This document shows positions 1,853 to 18,423 of a DNA stretch of 18,423 bases, piece by piece. The first letter of the stretch is position 1, and each line of letters starts with the position of its first letter. Position numbers and translations under genes: made by a program. The stretch lies in the IMG/VR virus record IMGVR_UViG_2879770953_000006. One strand, given 5' to 3'. The notes beneath the pieces are model-generated. The model was not told the origin of the DNA, made no database searches, and was given only the letters and a program-made list of their open reading frames with translations. Source of the DNA: a virus (Duplodnaviria; Heunggongvirae; Uroviricota; Caudoviricetes).

Positions 1853-1985
1853 CGTAGTTCTCCGCTGGCGCAGTAGAATGGGTGTTCAGCCCGTTATGTA
1901 GTATACCAGAATTAATGCCAATACTAACAGGGTAATGCTGCCAACTTACTGATTTAGTGTATGATGGTGATTTTAAGGTGCTTGC

Positions 1986-2261
1986 GTGGCTTCCATTTCC
2001 ATCAGATGTCCTTCCTGCTCCGCTACTGAAGGCGTGGTGCGTAACGGCAAAAGCACTGCCGGACATCAGCGCTATCTCTGCTCTCATTGCCGTAAAACAT
2101 GGCAACTACAGTTCACTTACACCGCCTCTCAGCCCGGTACGCACCAGAAAATCATTGATATGGCCATGAATGGCGTCGGATGTCGCGCCAGCGCACGCAT
2201 TATGGGCGTTGGCCTCAACACGGTTTTACGTCACTTAAAAAACTCAGGCCGCAGTCGGTAA
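1986..2261 (+). CDS. insA: IS1 InsA
   Basis: Translation [66 protein letters not shown]... is near-identical to IS1 InsA. Confidence 0.95.
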
Positions 2262-2683
2262 CCTCGCGCATACAACCGGGCAGTGATGTGATTGTCTGCG
2301 CTGAAATGGACGAACATTGGGGCTACGTCGGTGCTAAATCACGTCAGCGCTGGCTGTTTTACGCGTATGACAGGATACGGAGGACGGTTGTGACGCACGT
2401 CTTCGGTGAACGCACTCTGGCCACACTGGAGCGTCTTCTGAGCCTGCTGTCGGCCTTTGAGGTCGTGGTATGGATGACGGATGGCTGGCCGCTGTATGAA
2501 TCACGCCTGAAGGGAAAGCTGCACGTTATCAGCAAGCGTTACACTCAGCGCATTGAGCGACATAATCTGAATCTGAGACAACATCTGGCAAGGCTGGGAC
2601 GGAAGTCACTGTCGTTCTCAAAATCGGTGGAGCTGCATGACAAGGTCATCGGGCATTATCTGAACATAAAACACTATCAGTAA
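2180..2683 (+). CDS. insB: IS1 InsB reading frame (expressed as InsAB' by -1 frameshift)
   Basis: Translation ...[50 protein letters not shown]... matches IS1 InsB. Coordinates are the ORF-track frame. Confidence 0.9.
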
Positions 2684-2700
2684 GTTGGAGTCATTACCTA

Positions 2701-3682: not shown

Positions 3683-3713
3683 AAAAACCCCGGACCATCA
3701 ATCCGGGGTTTTT
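3683..3713. terminator. Bidirectional intrinsic terminator
   Basis: AAAAA-CCCCGGA-CCATCAA-TCCGGGG-TTTTT: 7-bp GC-rich stem flanked by an A-run and a T-run, immediately after the 27-aa ORF. Confidence 0.7.
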
Positions 3714-3718
3714 GTTTG

Positions 3719-3802: not shown

Positions 3803-4164
3803 TGATTCACCTCCTGCGGTGGTTCCGGTAGCGGCATCCAGTGAGTTGAGCTCTCTACTTCAACGCCGTCTTTGTCCACAAAAGCCATCTTATTCCCGCC
3901 ACGAGTGGGGCAAAAAACCTTATCCCAGGAACCGGGGAATACATTCCCGAGATCATCGAGAAGAATCACATCGCAATATTCAGCAGGAACTGCATCACTA
4001 CAGCTTATCCAGCCAGCCAGAGTTACCGGAGAGTTGCCAGCCTTACGCATGGCCATTTCCACGATTTCAACCATATCTCCTGGTGGAATTTTACAAAGTT
4101 GCCCAATACATTTCTGCTGCCTGGCATATTCGAGAATGTGCTCCAGTTTGGTTCGATTAATCAT
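3799..4164 (-). CDS. Hypothetical phage protein (121 aa), possibly DUF551-type
   Basis: TAATG stop/start overlap with the upstream gene. C-terminal HWMPLPEPP motif recalls DUF551 phage proteins; this is recollection only. Confidence 0.55.
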   Translation of the reverse strand: MINRTKLEHILEYARQQKCIGQLCKIPPGDMVEIVEMAMRKAGNSPVTLAGWISCSDAVPAEYCDVILLDDLGNVFPGSWDKVFCPTRGGNKMAFVDKDGVEVESSTHWMPLPEPPQEVNQ

Positions 4165-4829: not shown

Positions 4830-5191
4830 GCCGTAGCCCCTTCTTGATATTTTTCAAACCAGAACACAACCGGGTCAGATTTCATTTCAACCAATCCCAT
4901 ACGAACCAGCGCTTTGCCTTTCCCGGACGCAAGGAATTCACGACGACCATCACTGATAATTCGTCGATAATCTTCTAGGCTACTGCAATGCTTGTGCAGA
5001 TTGCATGGGTGGCATTCTGGTACCATGTTGGATATATCGTCACGTTCCTGGTGAAGCATATTTCCATCAAAACGAATGACCGGTTTTACATGGTCTGCAT
5101 GCCACTTTTCGCCAAGTTCGCAGCCGCAATAAGCGCAGCGACCACCGAACTTCATGCGCAGTTCTGCACGTTGTTTTTTCGTCAGTGCCAT
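4757..5191 (-). CDS. HNH endonuclease (144 aa)
   Basis: ORF-track ORF 4757..5281 begins with TTG; the preferred ATG at 5189-5191 has SD AAGGAAAG. Motifs CAYCGCEL...WHADHVKPV...CHPCNLHK are typical of HNH nucleases. Confidence 0.75.
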   Translation of the reverse strand: MALTKKQRAELRMKFGGRCAYCGCELGEKWHADHVKPVIRFDGNMLHQERDDISNMVPECHPCNLHKHCSSLEDYRRIISDGRREFLASGKGKALVRMGLVEMKSDPVVFWFEKYQEGATAWPLLPKSDCNGWLTFLAAMILTI

Positions 5192-5192
5192 A

Positions 5193-5411
5193 TCAGCTTT
5201 CCTTATACGGATTAATTTTATTGTGCAGTGTGTTGAATGACGCCCATACCACGTCGTTATACAATTCAATAACTGGCTCAATTATTTTTCCGATTATCCA
5301 GACAAAAATTAGCGGGGATATCGGTGTCATCAACACGATAAACAGAATGAGAAACAGGAATTCTGTTGTTCTACTCTTTCGCGGATATTTTTTTCTAAAT
5401 AATGTAACCAT
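5193..5411 (-). CDS. Small membrane protein (72 aa), AT-rich
   Basis: Basic N-terminus (KKYPRKSR) followed by a roughly 28-residue hydrophobic stretch. Its last codons form the SD of the downstream HNH gene (stop TGA, 1-nt spacer, ATG). Base composition is markedly more AT-rich than neighbours. Confidence 0.5.
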   Translation of the reverse strand: MVTLFRKKYPRKSRTTEFLFLILFIVLMTPISPLIFVWIIGKIIEPVIELYNDVVWASFNTLHNKINPYKES

Positions 5412-5503
5412 TCATTACCGCCCTTTCGGGCGGTCTCCTGATGATTTGAGGGTGCAGAAATCCCTCCGGTTAAGGATTAAATTTTTAACAGTGCTAAATT
5501 TAA

Positions 5504-5860
5504 TTATTCAGTTCTGGATTTTGTCGCCCTGCGTATCCGCGCTTTCGCGTTACGCTCAATCTGTATCAGCTTTTCTATATTTCTCCGCCTTTCCTGTTCC
5601 TCCTGGCGCAATAGCCTTACATCATCTGCCAGTCTGGTTTCTCTTTTTGCCACAGAGAGCATCCAGTCAAACGGCTCCACAACCGCACCGCAGATTTTAC
5701 AGCGGACCTGACGCTCTTTTTCGTCAACCCGGACAGAGGCGTGATGGCAATATGGTCTTTCCGATGGTTCATAAAGAAAATTAACCTGATTACGTGGGTC
5801 ATCCTCTTTTACCGGAAATAAAACGATATTGCTTAACTCATCTTCTGGTTTTATTTCCAT
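5504..5860 (-). CDS. Hypothetical Zn-ribbon protein with basic coiled-coil C-terminus (118 aa)
   Basis: Strong SD AAGGAGAGGAG upstream of the ATG at 5858-5860. CHH...CKIC motif, then a Q/E/R-rich C-terminal segment. Confidence 0.6.
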   Translation of the reverse strand: MEIKPEDELSNIVLFPVKEDDPRNQVNFLYEPSERPYCHHASVRVDEKERQVRCKICGAVVEPFDWMLSVAKRETRLADDVRLLRQEEQERRRNIEKLIQIERNAKARIRRATKSRTE

Positions 5861-5917
5861 GCTCCTCTCCTTTGATGCGAATACCAGCGGTAATTGAAGC
5901 CTGATAGCTAATTTTAC

Positions 5918-6340
5918 TCACAGTACCGCCTCCTGAAATTTCCCCTGATAAAACGCCAGCACGCGCTGCATAGCTTCGCTCTTCCGGCACTCGCGACAGA
6001 TTATATTCAGGCGCCTGTCGTAGCGGCGTATTTCTCCGTCTGGTAATGACCAGATAAGGTCAGGATCAACCACAACCGGTTTCTTCACCTTTACCCTCGA
6101 TAGCTTTTTGCGGGCGTTTTGCCAGTCTTTATGAGCCTGTTCAGAGGGAAATACCCCGTAGCCAGAATTATATACATCACCACTTGCGACCAGTTCCATG
6201 CATAAGCGACCGACAGACGCACGACTGATACCTGTTTCATCTGACAACTGCCGAATCGTGACCCGACCGTCCTGATGCACGAGTTCCACAATTCGCGTCT
6301 TCAGTTCTTCCCGCTGTTCGGGAGTAAAAGGTTTCGCCAT
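5918..6340 (-). CDS. Putative winged-helix DNA-binding protein (140 aa)
   Basis: SD AGGAGG 7 nt upstream of the ATG. N-terminal HTH-like segment (VTIRQLSDETGISRASVGRLCMELVASGDV) and C-terminal CxxC. Confidence 0.6.
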   Translation of the reverse strand: MAKPFTPEQREELKTRIVELVHQDGRVTIRQLSDETGISRASVGRLCMELVASGDVYNSGYGVFPSEQAHKDWQNARKKLSRVKVKKPVVVDPDLIWSLPDGEIRRYDRRLNIICRECRKSEAMQRVLAFYQGKFQEAVL

Positions 6341-6354
6341 AAATCCTCCTGAAA

Positions 6355-7101
6355 CTACTTAACAACCCTCGAATGGCTAACATTCGGACGCCAGCTCTCC
6401 CAGTTAAAATTCACCCAGCGCCCGCCGTTCATGACCATGCGATCCATCACCCGCTCGCCGAGAAGTGTATTCATCGCTGCATGGTTAATATTTGTCAGCA
6501 TCCCCACACCGCGTAACGATGCCGTCCGGCGATCAACAATCTGGTTCAGTACCACCTGCTCGTTTTTCGTATCCCGCTGCATGCCAATTTCATCCAGGAC
6601 CAGCAGGTCAACACCACAAAGCTCCTGTAAAAATTTTTCACCGGATTTGCCGTTGTCGTAGCTCTCATGCAACACGCTCATGACATCGGACACGGTGACG
6701 ATAATCACGCTACGCCCCTTCGCCATCAGCCGGTTGCCAATCGCGGCTGCAAGATGATTTTTTCCGGTGCCGGGCTTACCGCTGAACACAAAATTCGTAC
6801 AGCCTGTCATCAGTTCGTCAGCTATGGATTTCGCCTGACTCAGTGCATGTCGCTGACCGTCGTTCTGCGCCCGGTAATTCGCAAACGAACACTTCCGGTG
6901 CAACGGCTGGATGCCGGAGCGGTTCAGGATTTTTTCCACCCGCAACTGACGATTCAGGCGGTTGATCTCCTCGCAACGTTTCTGGCCTTCAGCAAGTTGC
7001 CACTCGCGCCACTCCGCAACCGTTCTGAATGGGGCGGTTACATGTGGTGGGGTCAGTCTGCGGATACGCTCCAGAACGCCTCCTGTCGCAATATTTTTCA
7101 T
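6355..7101 (-). CDS. DnaC-like replication protein / helicase loader (IstB-like AAA+ ATPase, YdaV-like), 248 aa
   Basis: Walker A FSGKPGTGKNHLAAAIG and Walker B LLVLDEIG; immediately downstream of the initiator-like gene. Confidence 0.85.
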   Translation of the reverse strand: MKNIATGGVLERIRRLTPPHVTAPFRTVAEWREWQLAEGQKRCEEINRLNRQLRVEKILNRSGIQPLHRKCSFANYRAQNDGQRHALSQAKSIADELMTGCTNFVFSGKPGTGKNHLAAAIGNRLMAKGRSVIIVTVSDVMSVLHESYDNGKSGEKFLQELCGVDLLVLDEIGMQRDTKNEQVVLNQIVDRRTASLRGVGMLTNINHAAMNTLLGERVMDRMVMNGGRWVNFNWESWRPNVSHSRVVK

Positions 7102-7107
7102 GGTCTG

Positions 7108-7848
7108 TTACCCCCTGAAGCCTGGCGGGATCGCACTGTCCGGCAACGAGACGGTGTTAACCTGTCGGAGCAACGTCTCAGGCCGAACACCTTTCGGCGC
7201 GAACAGACCCTGGTATTCATTGGCGATGCTGTGTCGAATCACCTGCTCAGGTGTAAAACCCTGCTGACGGAATTTTTCCAGTTCCCGTATCGCCCCGTTA
7301 GCGCCCAGCTCCGTTCGAATCGGTTTTCGCAATGCCTGCCTGAACTGGACCCACTCATGCCAGAGTGTATCTGGCAACCAGTCGGGCAGATCAACTGACA
7401 ACGGGTCAAATTTTTTCTGGCGAACAGCCCCACCGATAACCAGAATTCCCTGCTCGGTGTGCCTTGCGATATCACTGCGCCGCAAGACACATATCCCGGT
7501 TTCAACAGCACCGATTTTGAGCAGTGATTTCTGTCGCGGAGAATTTCGGTCAAGCTCGATCCCACACCGGACACCGTTCCTGTCAGTCACGACGATATCA
7601 ATCCGCCCTCCGCAACCGTCACCACGCTCTGGCACCGGATACTCACGACAGACATCCAGGCCAGCAGCCTGCAACGCAACCACCGCAGAATTACAAAATT
7701 CCGCTGCAGTACCGCCAGATAATCTCCCCTCAAGCACTCCAGCCACAAAATCCCGAAACTCCCTTCCGGAAGGGAAGGGTTTGGGATGGGTTAGATCTGT
7801 TTTTAGATCTTTATCTGTATCTTTATTAGTTGCCTTTGTGTTGGCATC
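7108..7848 (-). pseudogene. Replication initiator (lambda O-like / YdaU-like), C-terminal portion, separated from its 5' part by IS2
   Basis: Open frame from the IS2 junction to the stop at 7108. It is in frame with the N-terminal piece at 9185-9592 once IS2 and one TSD copy are removed, giving a 382-codon gene. Confidence 0.7.
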
Positions 7849-7939
7849 TAGACTGGCCCCCTGAATCTCCAGACAACCAGTATCACTTATTTAAGTGATA
7901 GTCTTAATACTAGTTTTTAGACTAGTCATTGGAGAACAG

Positions 7940-8305
7940 ATGATTGATGTCTTAGGGCCGGAGAAACGCAGACGGCGTACCACACAGGAAAAGATCGCAA
8001 TTGTTCAGCAGAGCTTTGAACCGGGGATGACGGTCTCCCTCGTTGCCCGGCAACATGGTGTAGCAGCCAGCCAGTTATTTCTCTGGCGTAAGCAATACCA
8101 GGAAGGAAGTCTTACTGCTGTGGCCGCCGGAGAACAGGTTGTTCCTGCCTCTGAACTTGCTGCCGCCATGAAGCAGATTAAAGAACTCCAGCGCCTGCTC
8201 GGCAAGAAAACGATGGAAAATGAACTCCTCAAAGAAGCCGTTGAATATGGACGGGCAAAAAAGTGGATAGCGCACGCGCCCTTATTGCCCGGGGATGGGG
8301 AGTAA
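7940..8305 (+). CDS. insC: IS2 InsC (OrfA), 121 aa
   Basis: Translation [56 protein letters not shown]... matches IS2 InsC; ATG at 7940 with SD GGAGAA. Confidence 0.95.
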
Positions 8306-9168
8306 GCTTAGTCAGCCGTTGTCTCCGGGTGTCGCGTGCGCAGTTGCACGTCATTCTCAGACGAACCGATGACTGGATGGATGGCCGCCGCAGTCGTCAC
8401 ACTGATGATACGGATGTGCTTCTCCGTATACACCATGTTATCGGAGAGCTGCCCACGTATGGTTATCGTCGGGTATGGGCGCTGCTTCGCAGACAGGCAG
8501 AACTTGATGGTATGCCTGCGATCAATGCCAAACGTGTTTACCGGATCATGCGCCAGAATGCGCTGTTGCTTGAGCGAAAACCTGCTGTACCGCCATCGAA
8601 ACGGGCACATACAGGCAGAGTGGCCGTGAAAGAAAGCAATCAGCGATGGTGCTCTGACGGGTTCGAGTTCTGCTGTGATAACGGAGAGAGACTGCGTGTC
8701 ACGTTCGCGCTGGACTGCTGTGATCGTGAGGCACTGCACTGGGCGGTGACTACCGGCGGCTTCAACAGTGAAACAGTACAGGACGTCATGCTGGGAGCGG
8801 TGGAACGCCGCTTCGGCAACGATCTTCCGTCGTCTCCAGTGGAGTGGCTGACGGATAATGGTTCATGCTACCGGGCTAATGAAACACGCCAGTTCGCCCG
8901 GATGTTGGGACTTGAACCGAAGAACACGGCGGTGCGGAGTCCGGAGAGTAACGGAATAGCAGAGAGCTTCGTGAAAACGATAAAGCGTGACTACATCAGT
9001 ATCATGCCCAAACCAGACGGGTTAACGGCAGCAAAGAACCTTGCAGAGGCGTTCGAGCATTATAACGAATGGCATCCGCATAGTGCGCTGGGTTATCGCT
9101 CGCCACGGGAATATCTGCGGCAGCGGGCTTGTAATGGGTTAAGTGATAACAGATGTCTGGAAATATAG
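8263..9168 (+). CDS. insD: IS2 InsD (OrfB transposase), 301 aa
   Basis: Translation ...[50 protein letters not shown]... shows the DDE-type IS3-family transposase signature. Confidence 0.95.
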
Positions 9169-9184
9169 GGGCAAATCCAGCATC

Positions 9185-9592
9185 ATGTTCGAACACCACT
9201 CCAACATCTGTTTGAACACCTGTTAAATTTCTCTCTTGTTTTGTTTGAACATCTGCTTCCTTTCTGCTTCTTCTGGCCTGAACAGATGCTTTTCCTGCGG
9301 CTGATTTTTTGGTTAATTTTTCTCTGACAGATGCCAGATCTTCCTCAATCCGAAGATGCATCCATTCGTCGCCGTTATCACAAAAAAACTCCCGCAAGGA
9401 TGGTTCAACATCAACCCATCGCTCGTTAGTCAGACGGGCAATTTTTGCCAACCTGTTTTTGGGTATTGGCTTTCCTGTTTGCCAGTAATTGAACATCAGC
9501 AACAAATACGCGCCGTGCTCCTCTGCTGACAAATGCATGGTGTCAGCCAGATAATCAGCTATGTACAGTTGCATGTATGGTAATGCGGCCAT
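9185..9592 (-). pseudogene. Replication initiator (lambda O-like / YdaU-like, DUF1376-type), N-terminal 136 codons, truncated by IS2
   Basis: Translation MAALPYMQLYIADYLADTMHLSAEEHGAYLLLMFNYWQTGKPIPKNRLAKIARL... resembles YdaU-type proteins by recollection. The listed 196-aa ORF 9002..9592 is chimeric, with its tail encoded by the IS2 end. Confidence 0.7.
9186..9290. repeat. Putative origin iterons inside the initiator gene
   Basis: Direct repeats of TTTGAACA(C/T)CTG-like motifs at about 9187, 9211, 9244 and 9279 (33-bp spacing between the two best copies). An AT-rich repetitive stretch lies at 7789-7830 on the other side of IS2. Confidence 0.4.
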
Positions 9593-9695
9593 AATTGCCC
9601 CGTATGATGCTACCCGGTTGCTTAGAATAAGTGAGGTAGCCTGAGTTTAACGGACGCTCCTTCCTGAAATAGAATGGCATCAGAAGGAGCTAATA

Positions 9696-9998
9696 ATGAG
9701 CAGAAAAACCCAACGTTACTCTAAAGAGTTCAAAGCCGAAGCTGTCAGAACGGTTCTTGAAAATCAACTTTCGATCAGTGAAGGCGCTTCCCGATTATCT
9801 CTTCCTGAAGGCACTTTAGGACAATGGGTTACCGCCGCCAGAAAAGGGCTCGGTACTCCTGGTTCCCGCACGGTGGCTGAACTGGAATCTGAAATTCTGC
9901 AACTGCGTAAGGCGTTAAATGAAGCTCGCCTTGAGCGAGATATATTAAAAAAAGCAACAGCGTATTTTGCACAGGAGTCGCTGAAAAATACGCGTTAA
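9696..9998 (+). CDS. IS600-like OrfA (100 aa)
   Basis: Translation MSRKTQRYSKEFKAEAVRTVLENQLSISEGASRLSLPEGTLGQWV...; HTH plus leucine-zipper arrangement typical of IS3-family OrfA. Confidence 0.9.
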   Translation: MSRKTQRYSKEFKAEAVRTVLENQLSISEGASRLSLPEGTLGQWVTAARKGLGTPGSRTVAELESEILQLRKALNEARLERDILKKATAYFAQESLKNTR

Positions 9999-10033
9999 TC
10001 GAACAATGGCGACAACAATTTCCCATTGAAGCG

Positions 10034-10852
10034 ATGTGTCAGGTATTTGGTGTATCCAGGAGCGGTTATTACAACTGGGTACAGCATGAACCCTCAGACA
10101 GAAAACAAAGTGATGAGCGGCTAAAACTGGAGATTAAGGTGGCACATATCCGCACTCGCGAAACATATGGAACCCGGCGGCTCCAGACGGAGCTGGCAGA
10201 GAATGGCATCATCGTTGGTCGTGACCGACTGGCACGTCTTCGTAAGGAGCTGAGGCTACGCTGTAAGCAGAAACGCAAGTTCAGAGCGACTACGAACCCG
10301 AACCACAATCTGCCAGTTGCGCCAAATCTGCTGAACCAGACGTTCGCTCCTACAGCACCAAATCAGGTCTGGGTGGCGGACCTGACGTATGTTGCCACAC
10401 AGGAGGGATGGTTGTACCTCGCTGGCATCAAAGATGTTTATACGTGCGAAATTGTCGGCTACGCCATGGGAGAGCGCATGACAAAAGAGCTGACAGGTAA
10501 AGCCCTGTTTATGGCGCTCAGGAGCCAGCGCCCACCTGCCGGGCTAATCCACCACTCTGATCGAGGTTCACAGTACTGCGCATACGATTACCGGGTCATA
10601 CAGGAGCAGTTTGGTCTGAAAACATCAATGTCGCGTAAAGGTAACTGTTACGACAACGCTCCGATGGAAAGCTTCTGGGGAACGCTGAAAAATGAGAGCC
10701 TGAGCCACTATCGTTTTAATAACCGGGATGAAGCCATCTCAGTAATACGGGAATACATTGAGATTTTCTACAATCGTCAGCGTCGTCACTCTCGTCTGGG
10801 GAATATCTCCCCGGCAGCCTTCAGGGAAAAATATCATCAGATGGCTGCTTAA
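10034..10852 (+). CDS. IS600-like OrfB transposase frame (272 aa; normally an OrfAB frameshift fusion)
   Basis: DDE transposase motifs (...WVADLTYV...HHSDRGSQY...NAPMESFWGTLK...). Confidence 0.9.
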   Translation: MCQVFGVSRSGYYNWVQHEPSDRKQSDERLKLEIKVAHIRTRETYGTRRLQTELAENGIIVGRDRLARLRKELRLRCKQKRKFRATTNPNHNLPVAPNLLNQTFAPTAPNQVWVADLTYVATQEGWLYLAGIKDVYTCEIVGYAMGERMTKELTGKALFMALRSQRPPAGLIHHSDRGSQYCAYDYRVIQEQFGLKTSMSRKGNCYDNAPMESFWGTLKNESLSHYRFNNRDEAISVIREYIEIFYNRQRRHSRLGNISPAAFREKYHQMAA

Positions 10853-10895
10853 AAAAAGAACAAATGGTAGTGTCCGCTATTGCCAGTACACCTCA

Positions 10896-11056
10896 GTCAG
10901 ATATGTCAGCAGCCCAAACAGCAGACTCCCCAGCACGCCTATTGCCGCCCACTGAGACGGGGAAAACCTGTCCAGCAACTGCAGGAACCAGTAGCCCGTT
11001 CCCACCGCTGACGTGGTGTATGACACACCTGTTGTGATTTTTTCCATCTGGTCCAT
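10896..11056 (-). pseudogene. S21-type pinholin, 3'-truncated by IS600
   Basis: Translation [54 protein letters not shown] closely resembles phage 21 holin S21 over 53 native codons. The reading frame then runs 5 codons into the IS600 end (EVYWQ, stop). Dual-start motif M-D-Q-M present; SD GGGAGA. Confidence 0.75.
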
Positions 11057-11363
11057 ACCCCGTCTCCCGTTATCCGGAAGCTGACAACAATAAAAAAGCC
11101 ACCAGTTAACTACTGATGGCTCTGATAACTCATGCAAGCGTCTCAGACGACCCACTGACACTACCGGTGAGTTTAACGATACCTTCCATTTGACTGGCTC
11201 ACTTTTTATGATGATGCCGGTGCATTTATCTCCAGCACCAGACTTTCTATCTCAACGCCATACGTTGCATTTTTGGTAATATCCGTCAGCGTCAGTGCAT
11301 TTAGTCCCACTGCCAGACTGTCTTTTATGGCCTGGAATGCCGGGCCAGTACGATGACGTAGTA

Positions 11364-11552
11364 TCACTCCGGCTCAGTTGCACCACTGACCACCACATCA
11401 CCTTCTGCTGCAATCGCCTGCATCAGGGTATAAGGGGTTATGGCCACCGGACTACCAAACGGCTGCCAGCCCTCTTTCAGTTTATGTGTCAGCTTTTCCG
11501 CAAGATCTGACGGCGGCGCCGCCCTGACAACATCATAGTGTTTAAATGCCAT
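11364..11552 (-). CDS. Small conserved phage protein (DUF1737-like by recollection), 62 aa
   Basis: ORF-track ORF 11364..11567; preferred ATG at 11550-11552 with SD GGTGGA. Lies upstream of the holin, as in Stx-phage lysis regions. Confidence 0.5.
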   Translation of the reverse strand: MAFKHYDVVRAAPPSDLAEKLTHKLKEGWQPFGSPVAITPYTLMQAIAAEGDVVVSGATEPE

Positions 11553-11811
11553 GGTTCTTTCCACCATCTGAAAAATAATTCTTTAAAATACCTGACATGT
11601 AATACAGAAAAAACACAAAACCATACCTTAAATAAAAACCTGATTATCAAGCAGATATGCATGGATAAACTACAAGACGAGATATAAACCACCCTGCATT
11701 TAAATAAACAATAAACAACATCAGAAAAATAATTCTGCTCTATGGTTTAATTCAAAAATATCATTTATACTTTTCAGAACATCACCAGCAAGGCATAAAC
11801 AAGGAAACTAA

Positions 11812-12147
11812 ATGAAGTGGATTGTGATTGATACAGTTATCCAGCCATCATGCGGAATATCTTTTTCAGTCATATGGAGTAAAATAAAATTAATAATCTG
11901 GTATCAATCGGATGCTTTCTTACCTCCTGAAAGTATATTTACACTGACTCACACAGGCATCATGCTCAATAACAAAGTGCTACCTGTAACCATTTACAAC
12001 GTAGTACCATTCAATAAAACATTCTGGAATTTAATCAAAAACAGCCAGGAATGCCCTACAAATACAGATAACGTATTGAATGAATGCTTTAATAACCGTT
12101 GCACTCTGCAAATATGTCCTTATGGACTAAAACAACAAAGTCCATAA
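11812..12147 (+). CDS. Hypothetical protein (111 aa), AT-rich cargo ORF
   Basis: ATG with SD AGGAAA 6 nt upstream. The only plus-strand ORF with good signals inside the prophage; AT-rich codon usage; C-terminal Cys cluster. A hairpin at 12184-12199 (CCCCTC-CGGA-GAGGGG) lies about 37 nt downstream. Confidence 0.45.
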
Positions 12148-12594
12148 GGAGTTTACTCACATCTGACAAAATCAATATAAACAGCCCCTCCGGAGAGGGG
12201 CTGGAGAGTGGCGCTATGTGCCATTGCATGGTGCCGGGTGCCTCCCGGTGAATTCAGTACCAGCACCTGAATCCGCGATTATCCCATATACCTACTCGCT
12301 GATTGCCCCTCCGCACAGGGGGATTCACCATGCCAGTTTCTTTTAACAAACTCCCCGCAAACCAGACAACAGTCAACCGCCTGAATTGTGAAGTATTTAA
12401 AAATTTCTCCCGCTAACTGATACCCGGCTAACAGTCTGGCGTTTTCTTTTTCAGCAACGGGAAAGCAACAACCACCACACCCGCCACCAGCACACCGTCA
12501 GCCGGCACTGACATTATCCGGCTGCTGCAATGCCATTCACAAAAACAGTAAGCAATCACTTTTTACCGTAACAGGTGATAATCCAGATATGTAT

Positions 12595-12948
12595 CTACCC
12601 CAGATGAGTAATCCGAAGTTCATCCATACCACAGGTCCTGGCTATTCTGTTGTACTCCTGAACAAGAGCAAATAATTCTGAATTAGCAACCATGAACTCA
12701 TCGCAAACCCTCTGTATAGCATCACTATTCAGAATAATAACGTCTCTTCCCGAAAGACGATCAGGAGTACAGAACAAAACTGTCAAACGGCTGAAGGCCT
12801 TTGCTCGTGCTGCATTGACTATATCAATACGCTGCCTAAGGATGAAACACCCCGACGCCTCATCAATATTCACTCTACCCACACCATATGAATGATAAAT
12901 ACTTAATGCTGAAAAAACCATTAGACCGTATAACAAATACTCAATCAA
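12595..12948 (-). CDS. Hypothetical protein (117 aa from TTG; 108 aa from ATG at 12921), first ORF downstream of the tRNA genes
   Basis: Six-frame ORF with no strong SD. Sits at the position stxAB occupies in Stx phages. No motif recognised. Confidence 0.4.
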   Translation of the reverse strand: MIEYLLYGLMVFSALSIYHSYGVGRVNIDEASGCFILRQRIDIVNAARAKAFSRLTVLFCTPDRLSGRDVIILNSDAIQRVCDEFMVANSELFALVQEYNRIARTCGMDELRITHLG

Positions 12949-13058
12949 TACTTAACAGAACTTTTATTTTTGACAAATATATAATATTTTCAACAATATC
13001 CTGAGCCAGGTATATTTCAGTATAAGGCTCTGCCGGAAGGAATCTGGAAGAATGAATA

Positions 13059-13135
13059 TGGCGCGCTGTACTGGATTCGAACCAGTGACCGATTGCTTAG
13101 AAGGCAATTGCTCTGTCCGGCTGAGCTAACAACGC
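13059..13135 (-). tRNA. tRNA-Arg (anticodon UCU), phage-encoded
   Basis: rc reads GCGTTGTTAGCTCAGCCGGACAGAGCAATTGCCTTCTAAGCAATCGGTCACTGGTTCGAATCCAGTACAGCGCGCCA. Cloverleaf is consistent: 7-bp acceptor stem with one G-U pair, T-loop GGTTCGAATCC, anticodon loop CTTCTAA, 3' CCA. Confidence 0.85.
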
Positions 13136-13236
13136 TGAATACCGATAATGGACCGCCATCGGGGACCCGCCCCCCGCACCAACAACCCTGTTATCGTGTC
13201 GTCTGCTCTTCCTGATAAGCTAATGGCGGTTTGTGA

Positions 13237-13312
13237 TGGTGGCCCTTGCTGGATTTGAACCAGCGACCTGGCGATTATGAGTCGCTCGCTCTCACCACTG
13301 AGCTAAAGGGCC
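13237..13312 (-). tRNA. tRNA-Ile2 (anticodon CAU, ileX-like; formally could be a Met tRNA)
   Basis: rc reads GGCCCTTTAGCTCAGTGGTGAGAGCGAGCGACTCATAATCGCCAGGTCGCTGGTTCAAATCCAGCAAGGGCCACCA, which closely resembles E. coli ileX. Confidence 0.8.
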
Positions 13313-13351
13313 GGGAGCAGAATAATAACGGTCCGTAATTAATTTCGCAAT

Positions 13352-13373
13352 AAAAAACCCGCTCAGCGGCGGG
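13352..13373 (-). terminator. tR'-like intrinsic terminator downstream of PR'
   Basis: Minus strand: CCCGC-CGCTGA-GCGGG hairpin followed by T6 (rc of AAAAAACCCGCTCAGCGGCGGG). Confidence 0.65.
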
Positions 13374-13407
13374 TTGTAGAAACTCTTCTAACGTCAGGCA
13401 TAAAACG

Positions 13408-13450
13408 CCCATCATTATGACGAATTTACCACAGATTCCGGAAAAATCAA
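13408..13450 (-). promoter_or_regulatory. Lambda PR'-like late promoter with qut/pause element
   Basis: Minus strand TTGATT-16 nt-TAAATT-cgtcaTAATGATGGG, compared with lambda PR' TTGACT-17 nt-TAAATT-tgactcAACGATGGG (from memory). Sits 5 nt after the Q stop. Confidence 0.7.
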
Positions 13451-13455
13451 CCTTG

Positions 13456-14277
13456 TTACCTAGTTACCTTTTTTAACTGCCGCTCAGCCCATGCTTCTTC
13501 AATATCAAACCGGGTCACCAGCGCATCATAAAATTTCTTAACTGTTTTTTCCCATGACGCGCGTGTTATCTGGTTTGTCACCTCGCATATAGCATTAAAT
13601 GCCTCCGTTGATGGTAGTCTTTCATAGCCACGACCACCACAACGCTGGCAGTCTCTGATAACAGGCATACCACGTTTTACCGACTCTTCACGATGAATGG
13701 CGACACCACGCCCACGGCAATCCTTACAGGCGGTGGAAACCTCACCCTTTCCGCCACACTCCGGACAGGCAACTTTTACCACCTCCCTGACTTTTTTCCA
13801 TTCTTCCCAGTAAGACGGATACACACCTTTCGTGCACTTTGCCCATACCGGCGGCTTACCATCCGGATACTGGATCTTGTTTGTAAAAACTATGCTTTCA
13901 ATAAATTTTTCCCCATAGCAACAAGGGCACTGCTTTTTACTCGCTGCGCTGCGGGCATAATCCTCAAAAGCGTACGAAGCCATAATGCGCATCACTACCG
14001 GTTTTATTTCTGCCGGAAGTTTTCTCAACGCCGCCACACGATCGCACCGACTGAGTGCATAATCTGCCAGTAATTCTGTTGCCCGCGCCCTGTCATTCAT
14101 ACTGATGCCCATTTTCCCCAGGAACGCAGAAAAACCCATCTCAGCCCGATTCTGTGTCATGCCCTGCGCGGCCATCACATCAGTGATACTCAGCGCATCT
14201 TTTGACGTTGAGGCCGATGCATCGGTCAGGCCAGGGGATTTTGGGGAGTAGTATTTCGGTAAATCTTCCAGTTTCAT
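13456..14277 (-). CDS. Q: Antitermination protein Q, lambda type (273 aa), with extra Cys-rich insertion
   Basis: Collinear with lambda Q: KYYSPKSP / KFHSPKSP, SITDVMAAQGM / SGTDVMAAMGM, ASYAFEDYARSAA / ATFAYADYCRSAA, C-terminal ...WEKTVKKFYDALV...VTR. Four CxxC motifs, three of them CxxCxGxG. Confidence 0.85.
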   Translation of the reverse strand: MKLEDLPKYYSPKSPGLTDASASTSKDALSITDVMAAQGMTQNRAEMGFSAFLGKMGISMNDRARATELLADYALSRCDRVAALRKLPAEIKPVVMRIMASYAFEDYARSAASKKQCPCCYGEKFIESIVFTNKIQYPDGKPPVWAKCTKGVYPSYWEEWKKVREVVKVACPECGGKGEVSTACKDCRGRGVAIHREESVKRGMPVIRDCQRCGGRGYERLPSTEAFNAICEVTNQITRASWEKTVKKFYDALVTRFDIEEAWAERQLKKVTR

Positions 14278-14291
14278 TTTTTGACCTGCTC

Positions 14292-14648
14292 TTAATGCAT
14301 TATGGGGTAAATCTTCACCCCCAGACGTCCACCAGATACTGGCTGACCACGAACGATATTGATTTCATCAAACTGCTCATCGTCCATTAACACTCCCGCA
14401 TGCGTCAGCGCATCCAGCGGTGCTTTCAGGATATTGTCCAGGTCGCGACGACGCTTATCCGGTGGCTCTGCAATCACCTTTATCGCCAGCCTTCCGGACA
14501 GGCTTAATTTCAGCCGCTGCTGGCGAACAATAAGCGCCACAGCCCGGCGATAACGCTTTCCCTCCTCCGAGATAAAATATGTGCTGCCACGGCGTCGCCA
14601 GTAAGTGTTCACCGTCGGCGGGTAAGGTAAAACCAAATCTATGAGCAT
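14292..14648 (-). CDS. rusA: RusA-family Holliday-junction resolvase (118 aa)
   Basis: Motif PDKRRRDLDN, overall similarity to RusA, SD AGAGGTGA, position just upstream of Q. Confidence 0.85.
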   Translation of the reverse strand: MLIDLVLPYPPTVNTYWRRRGSTYFISEEGKRYRRAVALIVRQQRLKLSLSGRLAIKVIAEPPDKRRRDLDNILKAPLDALTHAGVLMDDEQFDEINIVRGQPVSGGRLGVKIYPIMH

Positions 14649-14660
14649 CAGTCACCTCTT

Positions 14661-15710
14661 TTACCCAAGCACGCCAGTTGCAAAGGCGTGATCAAGAAAA
14701 CGAAAAATTAAATCAACCTGAGAACCATGCTTTTCTTCGAACGCCAGAGGATCCGCATGAAGCTCGTTGTGATGCTCCCGACACAGCGGTAGCGTGAAAA
14801 TATCGTGAGATTTTGTCCCCATTCCGCCCTGACCATGACCAATCAGGTGATGGGGATCGTCGGCTGGCTTACCACAACACGCACACGGCTGTGTCTTCAC
14901 CCAGCGTTTGTATTTCTCGTTAACCCAACTGCGACGTTTAGGTCGTTTCATGAAAGATTCCGGAGACTCAGGATCAACGGCAATGCTGACCACCGTCTTT
15001 TCCTGTTGTGGGTTCTGTTGCTGGTGGGCGTGAGGCAGCGGCGCAAGATTTTTTGTGCGCTGTTTCAGTATGCTGGTGGCGGTCTGCTCTCCCGGTACGA
15101 TGTCGCTTTCACGGTACATTGAGCGGATTTTTTCCGCACGCAACCCCAGCGAACGACGTAATACCGCTTCCGGTAGCGCGTCCGCCACCTGATTGCGGAC
15201 CGCCCACCAGGATAATTCAGCCAGAGATAATTCACGCTCCTGCGTACCGCTTATTGCGTGACCGATGACGTCAATCATCCATGCTGACAGGTTTTGATGA
15301 GCAAGTTGCTCGAGTGATTCGGATGTCTGGTCACGCAACTGGTTGTCGCAGTGCCAGCACAACACCATTGCGCCGGTACCATAACGGTGAATGACGGTTT
15401 CGCTGTGATGATAATCGCCGTGTGGCCACTGGCAGGATTTAATATGGCGCAACAGCCAGTCAGACAATGCACCAGCACCACCAGCAGCACGAATCACCTG
15501 TGCGTTACTGAAAAACGGCAGCAATGTTTTGTCTTCCACCAGCGGCTGGCGAACGGCAGGAACGACCCCGGACGGCAGATTACGCATGCTTTTCGGTTCC
15601 GGCTCCACCAGTAACCGGGTATTGTGGAATACCGGCATGGATTCACGACCGGGCTTAAGGACCACCAGCCCGAGTTCCGGAACCAGAACAGGTCGAAGTA
15701 ATACCCGCAC
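14661..15710 (-). CDS. YdfU-like phage protein (DUF968-type by recollection; 349 aa) with C-terminal HNH-like Cys/His motif
   Basis: GTG start with SD GGAGG 5 nt upstream. C-terminus CACCGKPADDPHHLIGHGQGGMGTKSHDIFTLPLCREHHNELH. Same length and synteny as Qin-prophage YdfU as I recall it. Confidence 0.65.
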   Translation of the reverse strand: MRVLLRPVLVPELGLVVLKPGRESMPVFHNTRLLVEPEPKSMRNLPSGVVPAVRQPLVEDKTLLPFFSNAQVIRAAGGAGALSDWLLRHIKSCQWPHGDYHHSETVIHRYGTGAMVLCWHCDNQLRDQTSESLEQLAHQNLSAWMIDVIGHAISGTQERELSLAELSWWAVRNQVADALPEAVLRRSLGLRAEKIRSMYRESDIVPGEQTATSILKQRTKNLAPLPHAHQQQNPQQEKTVVSIAVDPESPESFMKRPKRRSWVNEKYKRWVKTQPCACCGKPADDPHHLIGHGQGGMGTKSHDIFTLPLCREHHNELHADPLAFEEKHGSQVDLIFRFLDHAFATGVLG

Positions 15711-15711
15711 G

Positions 15712-15990
15712 TTACCTCCAGATCCGTTGCTGGAATGTGCGGGACGGACGCGGTGGCTGTTCGGAGTAAGGGAGCCTGACGGAGATTATCCAGTGACGGT
15801 AGTCGAGGCTAAGGGCTTTTTTAACCTCGCATCCGCGCCTGCGGTAACACTGAATGAGCCATTCGGCCTGTTCTTCAGTGCATGAGGGATGCTGGTACCA
15901 GTCTGACTTAAATGCGTGAGAATACCGCTCGTGCGTGTGGGCAAGAACGGTCGAATTATCATGATTGTAATATTTTGCGTTGCGTGCCAT
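15712..15990 (-). CDS. Hypothetical protein (92 aa)
   Basis: ATG with SD GGAG; its stop is 1 nt from the downstream start and its 3' end supplies that gene's SD. Confidence 0.5.
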   Translation of the reverse strand: MARNAKYYNHDNSTVLAHTHERYSHAFKSDWYQHPSCTEEQAEWLIQCYRRRGCEVKKALSLDYRHWIISVRLPYSEQPPRPSRTFQQRIWR

Positions 15991-16056
15991 CGGTTTTCTC
16001 CGGTGGCACGGTGTTACTCAGCGGGAGTTCAGCCCCGCGCAAGATTGTAGATGAGT

Positions 16057-16307
16057 TTATTCTTCTGAAAAAGCAGAAAAGCCAGCTTTTATTCCGGTCT
16101 CTTTCAATGCCTGTAATGAAGTGACAAACTCACCGTCGCGCAAGATAAATCCGTCCGTCACTCGGGCATCCACAAAATTAATTAACGCAGCCCCATTTTT
16201 TGCAAACACACAATGCGGTAATGACTAACAATATTTCCATTTTCAACGCACACAGCATAGAGGCCATCTTCACAAAAAATTTTACGCAGTTCTTCGATGT
16301 TCATCAT
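16057..16307 (-). pseudogene. 83-codon small ORF (rem-like by size and synteny) interrupted by a -1 frame break in an A6 tract
   Basis: ATGATG start at 16307 with SD GGAAGGA. Reading MMNIEELRKIFCEDGLYAVCVENGNIVSHYRIVCLQK stops after 41 codons. The -1 frame continues NGAALINFVDARVTDGFILRDGEFVTSLQALKETGIKAGFSAFSEE to the stop at 16057. One extra A in the tract (T6 at 16196-16201 on plus) restores a single 83-codon ORF. Confidence 0.5.
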
Positions 16308-16435
16308 CAGAATCCTTCCAGATAAGTAGCACTCCCCTGTTCGGGGTCCATCCCTTTTATCCCTGCGCGCTACTTAAGTATTTTTGATTCTATTCCGGCA
16401 CCATCCAGAACTTCAAATGCGTTGAAAATAAAAAC

Positions 16436-16456
16436 AAAAACCCGCCGAAGCGGGTT
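16436..16456 (-). terminator. Rho-independent terminator at 3' end of relBE-hokD transcript
   Basis: Same CCCGC-TTCG-GCGGG hairpin plus T-run as at 3100-3122. Confidence 0.7.
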
Positions 16457-16524
16457 AAGTGCGGGTGCGTTGAGGATGCCTGCCACATCAGAGGTGGCGA
16501 GGGATTTCTCACTCGCCGGGTCTC

Positions 16525-16680
16525 TTACTCCTCAGGTTCGTAAGCTGTGAAGACAGCGACCTCCGTCTGGCCGGTTCGGATTCGTACCTCGCAGAGGTCT
16601 TTCCTCGTTACCAGTGCCGTCACTATGACGGTTAAACAGATGACGATCAGGGCGATTAACATCGCCTTTTGCTGCTTCAT
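16525..16680 (-). CDS. hokD: HokD (RelF) type I toxin, 51 aa
   Basis: Identical CDS to 3189-3344, SD AGGAGAAG, located 71 nt downstream of relE as in the relBEF operon. Under 60 aa, so absent from the ORF track. Confidence 0.9.
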   Translation of the reverse strand: MKQQKAMLIALIVICLTVIVTALVTRKDLCEVRIRTGQTEVAVFTAYEPEE

Positions 16681-16751
16681 AGCCTGCTTCTCCTGTCAAC
16701 GCAAAGCAGAAGTGTCACCTTCGGTGCGAAACAGAGATGTCATGCTTTGGT

Positions 16752-17039
16752 TCAGAGAATGCGTTTGACCGCCTCGCTATATACTTCCGAGCGTTCTCTT
16801 TTCCCAACAGAAATCACGAAAACGACAACTTTCTCGTCTATAACCTGGTATACAAGGCGATAGCCTGAAGACCGGAGCTTAATCTTGTAACAATCAGGCA
16901 TACCACGGAGCTTGTTTGCTTCAATCCGGGGTGACTCAAGTACTTCAACCAGCTTCTTTTTCAACTGTTCACGTACCGTCGAGCCCAGCTTTCGCCATTC
17001 CTTTAGTGCCCGCTCGTCAAAATCCAGAAAATACGCCAT
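16752..17039 (-). CDS. relE: RelE mRNA interferase toxin (95 aa)
   Basis: Translation MAYFLDFDERALKEWRKLGSTVREQLKKKLVEVLESPRIEANKLRGMPDCYKIKLRSSGYRLVYQVIDEKVVVFVISVGKRERSEVYSEAVKRIL is essentially identical to E. coli RelE as I recall it. Confidence 0.95.
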   Translation of the reverse strand: MAYFLDFDERALKEWRKLGSTVREQLKKKLVEVLESPRIEANKLRGMPDCYKIKLRSSGYRLVYQVIDEKVVVFVISVGKRERSEVYSEAVKRIL

Positions 17040-17278
17040 CAGAGTTCATCCAGCGTCACACGTACTGGCTTAGGATTACGAAGCCGTTCTTTCACTATCT
17101 CCACAAGTTCAGCATCTTCATCACTCAGGAGTGTCTGTTTGAACGGCAAGCGTTCATTGTCAGCGATATACTCGAGCATGAGACGAAGCGCTTCAGAAGG
17201 AGTTACACCCATTTTTTCAAGCGCGGCGTAAGAACGCGCTTTAAGTTCATCGTCAATACGCAGGTTAATGCTACCCAT
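17039..17278 (-). CDS. relB: RelB antitoxin (79 aa)
   Basis: Translation MGSINLRIDDELKARSYAALEKMGVTPSEALRLMLEYIADNERLPFKQTLLSDEDAELVEIVKERLRNPKPVRVTLDEL; ATGA overlap with relE. Confidence 0.95.
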   Translation of the reverse strand: MGSINLRIDDELKARSYAALEKMGVTPSEALRLMLEYIADNERLPFKQTLLSDEDAELVEIVKERLRNPKPVRVTLDEL

Positions 17279-17282
17279 GTCT

Positions 17283-17345
17283 TACACCTCTTGTAATTAC
17301 AAATGTCATTACAAGTATCGCACTACAACATGCTTAGGGCAAGTC
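17283..17345 (-). promoter_or_regulatory. relBE promoter and relO operator
   Basis: Minus strand reads ...TTGCCCTAAGCATGTTGTAGTGCGATACTTGTAATGACATTTGTAATTACAAGAGGTGTAAGAC-ATG; the TTGTAAT/ATTACAA hexad repeats are the RelB-RelE operator. Confidence 0.7.
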
Positions 17346-17561
17346 ACGAAGGAAGTCAGAAAGTAGTCGTAAGAACGGTGATCACTGTCCGCTTTGTGCC
17401 AGGAGCAGCCATTGCTAAGTCCATCCTGTATTGTGCAGGTCAGCTCTTTTTTAAAGAGTCCGGCCATCATCTTACTGGTACAGACACCATATACTTTGTG
17501 ACGGTCAGGCTACATATGCACAACTCAACTTATTCATCTATTTTTTGCTTTAGCATGTCAG

Positions 17562-18423
17562 TGAGGTGTACTGGCAATAGCGGACACTACCATTTGTTCT
17601 TTTTTTAAGCAGCCATCTGATGATATTTTTCCCTGAAGGCTGCCGGGGAGATATTCCCCAGACGAGAGTGACGACGCTGACGATTGTAGAAAATCTCAAT
17701 GTATTCCCGTATTACTGAGATGGCTTCATCCCGGTTATTAAAACGATAGTGGCTCAGGCTCTCATTTTTCAGCGTTCCCCAGAAGCTTTCCATCGGAGCG
17801 TTGTCGTAACAGTTACCTTTACGCGACATTGATGTTTTCAGACCAAACTGCTCCTGTATGACCCGGTAATCGTATGCGCAGTACTGTGAACCTCGATCAG
17901 AGTGGTGGATTAGCCCGGCAGGTGGGCGCTGGCTCCTGAGCGCCATAAACAGGGCTTTACCTGTCAGCTCTTTTGCCATACGCTCTCCCATGGCGTAGCC
18001 GACAATTTCGCACGTATAAACATCTTTGATGCCAGCGAGGTACAACCATCCCTCCTGTGTGGCAACATACGTCAGGTCCGCCACCCAGACCTGATTTGGT
18101 GCTGTAGGAGCGAACGTCTGGTTCAGCAGATTTGGCGCAACTGGCAGATTGTGGTTCGGGTTCGTAGTCGCTCTGAACTTGCGTTTCTGCTTACAGCGTA
18201 GCCTCTGCTCCTTACGAAGACGTGCCAGTCGGTCACGACCAACGATGATGCCATTCTCTGCCAGCTCCGTCTGGAGCCGCCGGGTTCCATATGTTTCGCG
18301 AGTGCGGATATGTGCCACCTTAATCTCCAGTTTTAGCCGCTCATCACTTTGTTTTCTGTCTGAGGGTTCATGCTGTACCCAGTTGTAATAACCGCTCCTG
18401 GATACACCAAATACCTGACACAT
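17562..18423 (-). mobile_element. IS600-like element, second copy, inverted; partial (runs off the window)
   Basis: rc of 17562-17604 matches the right end of copy 1 (…GTACACCTCA). OrfB is complete; OrfA and the left end lie beyond the window. Confidence 0.85.
17605..18423 (-). CDS. IS600-like OrfB transposase (272 aa)
   Basis: Differs from copy-1 OrfB at 2 residues (L/Q in RLRKE(L/Q)RLR and T/A in GERM(T/A)KE). Confidence 0.9.
   Translation of the reverse strand: MCQVFGVSRSGYYNWVQHEPSDRKQSDERLKLEIKVAHIRTRETYGTRRLQTELAENGIIVGRDRLARLRKEQRLRCKQKRKFRATTNPNHNLPVAPNLLNQTFAPTAPNQVWVADLTYVATQEGWLYLAGIKDVYTCEIVGYAMGERMAKELTGKALFMALRSQRPPAGLIHHSDRGSQYCAYDYRVIQEQFGLKTSMSRKGNCYDNAPMESFWGTLKNESLSHYRFNNRDEAISVIREYIEIFYNRQRRHSRLGNISPAAFREKYHQMAA

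Follow-up and report, generated by a model that had tools for sequence, protein, structure and literature searches.

Exchanged flanks at an inverted IS600 pair in Shigella flexneri point to recombination between dispersed copies

Insertion sequences and rearrangement in Shigella

IS elements, IS600 among them, have been named as the cause of inversions that distinguish Shigella flexneri strains, in the comparison of Sf8401 with Sf301 (Nie et al. 2006, PMC1550401), and rearrangement hotspots carry IS elements (Seferbekova et al. 2021, PMC8072062). Five IS have expanded in all Shigella, IS600 being one of them, and chromosomes carry 229–348 IS (PMC7373316). The phenomenon described here is therefore an already known and ordinary mode of Shigella genome scrambling, without mechanistic novelty. 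What the locus offers, positive and negative controls included, is a worked example of how missing target duplications combined with re-pairing of half-junctions identify joints made by crossover between IS copies.

The stretch of DNA analysed (18,423 nucleotides, hereafter the window) is catalogued as a viral record, IMGVR_UViG_2879770953_000006. Its positions 877–18423 are 100% identical to CP026098.1 (S. flexneri 3a FDAARGOS_74); in the E. coli collection, every record covers less than 80% of the window. The DNA of the window is chromosomal and comes from S. flexneri of serotype 3a, FDAARGOS_74 type. It is a patchwork of two prophage remnants joined via IS600, rather than a single prophage (Table 1), so prophage calls based on gene order and synteny analyses are misleading here.

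Table 1. Features of the window, with positions counted from its first nucleotide
Feature	Position	Strand	Remark
IS1 (768 bp)	1931..2698	+	Simple insertion, 9-bp duplication TACTAACAG
ydaV-type DnaC/IstB-like ATPase	6355..7101	-	Rac-type replication module
ydaU, C-terminal fragment	7108..7848	-	
IS2 (1331 bp)	7849..9179	+	Splits ydaU; simple insertion, 5-bp duplication GCATC
YdaU-family (DUF1376, PF07120) replication initiator, N-terminal fragment	9185..9592	-	Rac-type remnant
IS600 copy 1, complete	9632..10895	+	Joint of Rac-type and Qin-type remnants
IS600 copy 1 orfA	9696-9998		
IS600 copy 1 orfB	10034-10852		
Qin-type cryptic prophage remnant	10896..17561	-	6,666 bp
Truncated class II (S21-type) holin (PF04971)	10896..11056	-	Fused ORF ends in IS at 10877
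Q-type antiterminator	13456..14277	-	Qin-type remnant
rusA	14292-14648		
ydfU (DUF968)	14661-15710		
hokD	16525-16680		
relE	16752-17039		
relB antitoxin	17039..17278	-	Start ATG 17278
ydfV'	17303..17561	+	Last 47 nt absent; ORF continues into IS600 copy 2 to 17608
IS600 copy 2, inverted	17562..18423	-	Cut by window end; would end at 18825

Anatomy of the IS600 pair and origin of its flanks

Copy 1 is an element of 1264 bp in + orientation, with termini TGAGGTAG...ACACCTCA and terminal inverted repeats TGAGGTAGCC...GTACACCTCA. Its length, imperfect repeats, TG start and CA end are those of IS600 (~1264 bp), and it is 99.7% identical over 1264 bp to an element of E. coli VL40 annotated as 'IS3-like element IS600 family transposase'. 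The orfA product has 100 aa (PF01527, HTH) and the orfB product 272 aa (PF00665, PF13276, DDE/rve). A fused IS600 product of 385 aa is called in public annotations, with 'programmed frameshift' noted in the VL40 entry, in agreement with a -1 frameshift between orfA and orfB. Copy 2, whose IRR end at 17562 abuts ydfV', has its full length of 1264 bp in another locus compared (L003). Between the complete copies there are 4 nt differences and, as originally predicted, the visible OrfB of copy 2 differs at two residues (L to Q and T to A). With their IRR ends facing inward, the two inverted copies enclose the Qin-type remnant.

The 3-bp target duplication that accompanies simple insertion of IS600 is absent at both copies. 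Copy 1 lies between AAG (9629–9631) and GTC (10896–10898), the same triplets and element boundaries that had been read from the window beforehand. Copy 2 is flanked, in IS orientation, by ATT and CTG; its outer side was taken from CP026098.1, where the IRL end abuts ydeS, and the matching duplication that the original prediction had looked to beyond the window is not present there. Controls gave the expected result: a nearby IS600, in the ORF6N gene of eight related genomes, lies between CAG and CAG, and its reconstructed empty site, with one CAG, is 100% contiguous in four E. coli genomes. The IS1 and IS2 elements of the window likewise keep intact duplications. Given the CAG/CAG duplication of the sister copy, the absence at the window copies reflects later rearrangement, and their membership of IS600 stands.

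Redrawing the boundaries of the elements does not recover a 3-bp repeat, as the match to the uninterrupted counterparts (ydaU-upstream, holin and ydfV) breaks off precisely where IS600 begins. Also rejected was a simple inversion between copies 1 and 2: it does not restore the duplications, and would give AAG/CTG and ATT/GTC. The pentamer GTCAG does occur at both inner junctions (10896–10900 and 17557–17561), as had been noted with the proviso that it might be fortuitous. Relative to the IS, it points in opposite directions at the two copies, and so is not a shared duplication; it is native target sequence at both sites, and we treat its recurrence as chance. The BLAST match between the copies extends 24 nt into their IRL-side flanks, with 3 gaps, and this too is treated as chance, since other IRL flanks have no such similarity.

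The two sides of each copy have unrelated origins. To the left of copy 1 is the Rac-type ydaU replication gene, in a module whose counterpart, at 98–99.5% identity, is in the E. coli VL40 prophage at intR-ttcA; in related strains, an integrase, tail-fibre fragments and a sit-like ABC transporter come next after the remnant. Copy 1 lies 39 nt upstream of the start of the ydaU-type ORF (ATG 9592), close to the 40 bp first estimated. The longer ydaU start chosen by PGAP in VL40 would put copy 1 within codons 4–5. To the right is an S21-type holin on the minus strand, which matches a lambdoid prophage holin and is truncated, as predicted, keeping 54 of 71 codons; these are followed by EVYWQ and a stop encoded by IS sequence. 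None of 5426 complete E. coli genomes has the two flanks of copy 1 next to each other without interruption; matches end at the joint, and thus the IS600-free neighbours that could have overturned the original prediction were not found in that set.

At copy 2 the inner flank is Qin ydfV, with the insertion inside this gene and 283 bp from the relB start, a distance that had been given as 215 bp. The outer flank is the chromosomal, K-12-type fimbrial gene ydeS, where homology to uninterrupted E. coli sequence likewise breaks off right at the IS end; in K-12 ydeS and Qin are ~57 kb apart. Judged by the homology of the flanks, copy 1 alone is a prophage–prophage joint and copy 2 connects Qin ydfV with fimbrial ydeS; the proposed joint between two prophages thus holds for copy 1 (Rac-type/Qin-type) and fails for copy 2.

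These origins bear on two readings of the inverted pair. That both copies are simple insertions, with duplications lost by mutation or never formed, is almost certainly wrong. Unmatched flanks are seen at another IS600, in recE of E. coli VL40 (ATG and CAG), but in the window each copy's sides come from different loci, two prophages at copy 1 and Qin versus ydeS at copy 2, which refutes this reading. It is also hardly credible that IS600, remnant and IS600 moved in together as a composite transposon, even though a 6.7-kb passenger with the addiction modules relBE and hokD lies between two inverted copies of the same IS. The outer flanks of such a unit, AAG and AAT, show no duplication, no reference has the ydaU-upstream sequence next to ydeS, no empty site was found, and in most S. 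flexneri genomes the passenger has kept ydfJ, its native neighbour, beside it.

The enclosed remnant contains holin', DUF1737, an iraM-like gene, two tRNAs, the Q antiterminator, rusA, ydfU, the rem region, hokD, relE, relB and ydfV'. It is assigned to the Qin type by the conserved order holin-Q-ydfU-rem-hokD-relE-relB-ydfV, which it shares with K-12 Qin together with 99.9% identity over the relE-ydfV stretch (relB-ydfV included) and ydfJ as neighbour of the element, a flank that ydaU replaces in the window strain. The remnant differs from K-12 Qin in being reduced to 6.7 kb, with lysis, late and early/immunity genes lost, in carrying rusA, and in its Q-to-holin interval, which is like that of other lambdoid prophages (iraM-like, DUF1737, tRNAs) instead of holding cspB/cspF.

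Re-pairing of half-junctions among strains

Identical half-junctions pair differently across S. flexneri genomes. Through IS600, the ydaU half is joined to holin in the window and in L002, L003 and L025, and to pgrR in L014, L016 and L019–L022; the ydfJ half is joined to holin in L026–28, L036–38 and L042–43, and to ydfV in L024, L029, L031–32, L034–35 and L039. Two of these loci, L027 and L032, are exact inversion isomers of the 6.7-kb Qin remnant, at ~99.8% identity. In the assemblies compared, each orientation occurs about as often as the other; arbitrary orientation of the segment in some of the older 'complete' assemblies could inflate the number of isomers. Inversion isomers, the existence of which the original prediction had raised, are thus real, and they are observed between strains.

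Our preferred explanation, to which we give a probability of roughly 85%, is that homologous recombination between dispersed IS600 copies made the joints. IS600 has expanded in the lineage, and its dispersed and near-identical 1.26-kb copies would serve as portable homology for host general recombination, so that a crossover inside the element, probably of RecA type, would exchange the DNA beyond both copies. The resulting recombinant element would have the IRL flank of one ancestral insertion and the IRR flank of another, and therefore no matching 3-bp duplication. Copy 1 would be such a hybrid, with its IRL side from an insertion just upstream of the Rac-type ydaU and its IRR side from an insertion in the Qin-type holin, while in copy 2 an insertion in Qin ydfV would have been joined to one in ydeS. 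The enclosed 6.7-kb remnant could flip by the same IS600 recombination. A plausible order of events is loss of the Qin late region, then the ydeS-ydfV inversion, then, in the 3a lineage, replacement of ydfJ by ydaU as the flank; this last event may have been an inversion, or may derive from a duplication or translocation. The junctions, the flank origins and the re-pairing among strains all support the initial proposal of IS-mediated rearrangement rather than simple insertion.

The comparison of strains speaks for recombination between copies of IS600 rather than transposition-coupled deletion. A segment that lies inverted between two inverted copies of an IS is what replicative intramolecular transposition classically produces, and this mechanism could also account for the ydfJ'-IS600-holin' arrangement of other strains, a joint of colinear deletion. 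We nevertheless consider it unlikely that transposition of IS600 itself, by adjacent deletion or by inversion with a duplicated inverted copy, made the joints. Such transposition predicts that one target repeat is found just inside one copy and, as its reverse complement, just outside the other. The observed pairs do not fit: GTC inside copy 1 stands against AAT outside copy 2, and CAG inside copy 2 against AAG outside copy 1. Fresh transposition would not reproduce the identical half-junctions that re-pair among strains. A further point against it is that IS3-family elements move by copy-out/paste-in via a circle and normally give simple insertions. The ancestral deletion ydfJ'-IS600-holin', taken by itself, could equally stem from transposition-linked deletion.

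Short reads cannot bridge inverted 1.26-kb repeats, and an assembler could mispair flanks across the repeat or orient the 6.7-kb segment arbitrarily. An artefact of this kind is very unlikely as the source of the joints: two complete genomes sequenced independently (USA, Nigeria) and a 1.17-Mb contig show exactly the arrangement of the window, the joint is also present in many short-read assemblies, each flank–IS junction occurs in many such assemblies (35 blocks), and both isomers recur in many independent assemblies.

The reciprocal products of crossover are absent from the loci compared, which speaks against recombination between IS600 copies. Neither the predicted partner junctions (IRR+AAGCACAAACAGC, ACAGGTTAGTC+IRL and AAGCAACACTG+IRL), in which the other half of each presumed duplication would be expected, nor the reciprocal ydfJ-IS600-pgrR junction (CGTCACCAGCAAGATGGG-IS600-GGACGCCTGCATC) occurs in these loci, and a look-up with the truncated YdfJ protein (P0001) for the 3a reciprocal junction gave matches in other strains only. 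The SNP patterns of 76 IS600 copies are mosaic, and crossover points are not identifiable from them. In the reference arrangement of CP026772.1, the IS600 copies at ydaU and at the holin lie in direct repeat, ~186 kb apart; a single crossover between these would delete the DNA between them and leave another joint, and hence at least one extra step is needed.

As to consequences, the remnant might owe its survival to the relBE and hokD addiction modules, and its orientation might alter read-through from the Q-dependent late promoter, towards the ydfJ/ydaU side in one case and the ydeP/ydeS side in the other. It is quite unlikely, however, that the 6.7-kb remnant flips recurrently and reversibly within S. 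flexneri populations as an accidental, IS-based phase switch.

Comparison with known systems

The IS-mediated inversions and deletions of Shigella (PMC1550401, PMC8072062) resemble the present locus in that dispersed IS, IS600 included, bound the rearranged segments and in that strains within one species differ by these events; the Sf8401 locus (L039) itself carries the ydfJ-IS600-ydfV isomer. The published events differ in being described at whole-genome scale; 'inversion 4 (IS600)' among them might correspond to the 6.7-kb segment, and the 3a ydaU-holin joint is not mentioned in those two papers.

Composite transposons of the Tn5/Tn10 type likewise hold a passenger between two inverted copies of one IS. 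The window unit, in contrast, has neither an outer duplication nor any sign of movement, and its arms would act as recombination substrates instead of transposon ends. With invertible segments of the Pin/Gin/Hin type it has in common a segment found in both orientations between inverted repeats. A site-specific switch was nevertheless rejected, as there is no recombinase ORF in 10896–17561: in place of an invertase gene and short crossover sites, the window has repeats that are complete IS600 elements, on which general recombination presumably acts.

Flanks of the two IS600 copies

The original prediction attributed the two inverted IS600 elements to IS-mediated deletion or rearrangement rather than simple insertion, and this is supported by the absence of duplications, the unrelated flanks and the re-pairing of half-junctions (one IS600 end plus the non-IS sequence abutting it). 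The observation is confirmed, and its interpretation, that these IS600 copies are crossover joints in a Shigella chromosome, is supported. The only long inverted repeat that a scan of the window picks up pairs 10034-10902 with 17555-18423; its arms are 99% complementary, and the window end cuts it. Copy 1 is 99.7% identical to an E. coli VL40 element that carries the IS600 annotation. Copy 2 is complete in the chromosomes CP026098.1 and CP054892.1 (1264 bp, 4 positions different from copy 1), and the two residue differences claimed for its OrfB are seen in the visible part.

Features of the window, with boundaries of copy 1 read from the sequence
Feature	Position	Size	Details
IS1	1931-2698		intact 9-bp duplication TACTAACAG
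IS2	7849-9179		splits ydaU replication gene; intact 5-bp duplication GCATC
IS600 copy 1	9632-10895	1264 bp	TGAGGTAGCC...GTACACCTCA; orfA 100 aa, orfB 272 aa
IS600 copy 2	right (IRR) end at 17562		inverted; cut by window end
Qin-type remnant	between copies 1 and 2	6,666 bp	holin', Q, rusA, ydfU, hokD, relE, relB, ydfV' (prime, truncated)
tRNA-Arg(tct) and cat-anticodon tRNA	13059-13135 and 13237-13312		between Q and holin
hok-type direct repeat	3100-3358 and 16436-16694	259 bp	98% identical, 13.3 kb apart

Copy 1 is flanked by the triplets AAG (left) and GTC (right), as first described. A matching duplication at the outer flank of copy 2, proposed as a check, was sought in CP026098.1; in IS orientation the flanks in the complete genomes are ATT and CTG, thus there is no duplication, and all four triplets are different. 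Inverting the segment between the copies would swap partners to AAG/CTG and ATT/GTC, which restores no duplication, and simple inversion was rejected. Replicative intramolecular transposition would place inverted target repeats in specific positions, whereas the triplets compared are GTC versus AAT and CAG versus AAG, and its prediction is not seen.

The pentamer GTCAG is indeed present at the inner junctions of both copies. The suspicion that this was chance is borne out: the pentamer already exists in both uninterrupted targets, facing opposite ways with respect to the two IS copies, and we discarded it as a mechanistic signal. Separately, CAG or CTG stands at the start or within 5 nt of four of ~10 distinct IRR-side IS600 flanks (GTCAG, CTGAC, CAGAT and CAGAA, from the window and loci L001, L003 and L015 of other genomes, L001 being VL40), the verified CAG duplication among them; in so small a sample this may hint at a weak target preference.

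When all flanks were compared, homology to uninterrupted sequences stopped precisely at the IS600 termini, leaving no 3-bp repeat under a shifted IS boundary, a result that had been named as a possible refutation. The left flank of copy 1 lies immediately upstream of the YdaU-family replication initiator, after which comes a ydaV-type ATPase, and its region matches at 99.5% the prophage adjoining intR-ttcA in VL40, where the uninterrupted sequence reads ...AATAAG and then CACAAACAGC, heading toward ydaT. The right flank is a class II (S21-type) holin truncated after codon 54 of 71; uninterrupted, the E. coli sequence runs on into ydfR, lysozyme and Rz genes. Copy 2 lies within ydfV of the Qin prophage (relE-relB-ydfV 99.9% identical to K-12), 283 bp from the relB start codon and not 215 bp as had been given, and its outer flank is the fimbrial gene ydeS, which in K-12 lies ~57 kb from ydfV and in the window's strain has the opposite relative orientation. 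These separate origins indicate that copy 1 joins prophage to prophage and copy 2 prophage to chromosome; the proposed joint between two prophages thus stands for copy 1 (ydaU/holin) but not for copy 2 (ydfV/ydeS).

Several neighbouring features were also recorded. The cat-anticodon tRNA is annotated as tRNA-Ile in a matching E. coli prophage. The direct repeat formed by the hok-type toxin loci of both remnants is an additional deletion substrate, and deletion would take out IS2 and IS600 copy 1 along with the greater part of the Qin remnant. Window positions 1-~190 have no match to S. flexneri or E. coli prophage sequence, which is colinear from 189 onward, and correspond instead to one end of an IS3-family element found mostly on E. 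coli plasmids. Here a further IS boundary cuts the Rac-type remnant short, on the downstream side of its Q-like gene. Past the right end, outside copy 2, locus L003 (600-2231) is an IS scar field, in which a partial IS1 and solo 24-bp IS1 end fragments accompany a ~490-bp piece of ydeR repeated in tandem and the repeated end of another IS3-family element.

Target duplications in simple insertions

The argument presupposes that IS600 insertion usually generates a 3-bp duplication, a premise that we tested. An IS600 in an ORF6N gene, just past the left end of the window, has CAG on both sides in eight related genomes, and four E. coli genomes contain the reconstructed single-CAG empty site, 100% contiguous across its 297 nt. 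Joined without IS600, an arrangement also named as a possible refutation, the copy 1 flanks have no continuous match among 5426 complete E. coli genomes, all matches ending at the joint. The duplications of IS1 and IS2 are intact, therefore simple insertions are easily recognised in this region; the same IS2 insertion in ydaU is found in most related S. flexneri loci. Had IS600-remnant-IS600 moved as a composite transposon, its outer ends should be flanked by a duplication and an empty site should exist; neither was found. Elsewhere, the IS600 in recE of VL40 (L001 20443-21706) has unmatched flanks, ATG and CAG, and may be another rearranged copy.

Re-pairing of half-junctions among strains

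The ORF fusing the truncated holin to IS600 is present in drafts and in the complete chromosomes CP026098.1 and CP054892.1. The two chromosomes are from S. flexneri of predicted serotype 3a, FDAARGOS_74 (USA) and FDAARGOS_713 (Nigeria) respectively (PMC9455713), and CP026098.1 is 100% identical to window positions 877-18423. An assembly error is unlikely to explain the window arrangement, which two complete genomes show independently and a 1.17-Mb contig shares, although errors in older assemblies could raise the count of isomers.

Every IS600 junction was catalogued in ~40 loci of other genomes, found via the ydfV'-IS600 fusion ORF, the neighbouring Q-like protein and truncated YdfJ, which is named as a protein of Shigella flexneri. 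Half-junctions identical to the nucleotide recur in different pairings: ydaU on the left-end (IRL) side pairs with holin (window, L002, L003, L025) or pgrR (L014, L016, L019-L022), and ydfJ on that side with holin (L026-28, L036-38, L042-43) or ydfV (L024, L029, L031-32, L034-35 and L039, which is S. flexneri 8401). Fresh transpositions would not reproduce identical junction nucleotides; crossovers inside the IS account for all pairings. The inversion isomers that had been envisaged are seen between strains: directly compared, L027 and L032 share outer flanks around a flipped 6.7-kb remnant of ~99.8% identity and are exact isomers. Deletion is represented by L014 (CP182555.1; 10879-12142) versus L015 (10879-17673), where a full IS600 and a 5'-truncated downstream partner in direct orientation have recombined with loss of ~5.8 kb, an ORF6N gene and a 534-aa integrase included. 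IS600 copies at one chromosomal junction also vary between strains as a mosaic of ~20 shared SNPs (L002-L043), which suggests frequent gene conversion among them.

Proposed history and known Shigella rearrangements

The rearrangements would have begun with a Qin-type prophage at ydfJ losing its late region, giving ydfJ'-IS600-holin' colinear with K-12. Inversion between the ydeS and ydfV copies would then have given ydfV'-IS600-ydeS, and in some strains one IS600 would later have lost its outer 315-340 bp through an IS1-associated truncation. The holin-side copy would have traded its ydfJ flank for the ydaU flank in the 3a lineage; that ydaU flank pairs with pgrR in most strains. The ydaU and holin IS600 copies of CP026772.1 are direct repeats ~186 kb apart; one crossover from that arrangement yields another joint, therefore the 3a lineage would need at least one extra inversion or duplication intermediate. 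No reciprocal junction was found among the loci compared. The 3a chromosomes, at 4.58-4.59 Mb, fall within the 4.43-4.68 Mb of the other complete chromosomes returned, which weakly counts against a net loss of ~180 kb.

Expansion of IS600 is documented (PMC7373316), IS elements have been implicated at rearrangement hotspots (PMC8072062), and inversions between S. flexneri strains have already been ascribed to IS elements including IS600 (PMC1550401). The IS600 crossover joints are thus real but ordinary, the phenomenon having been known since the first Shigella genome comparisons.
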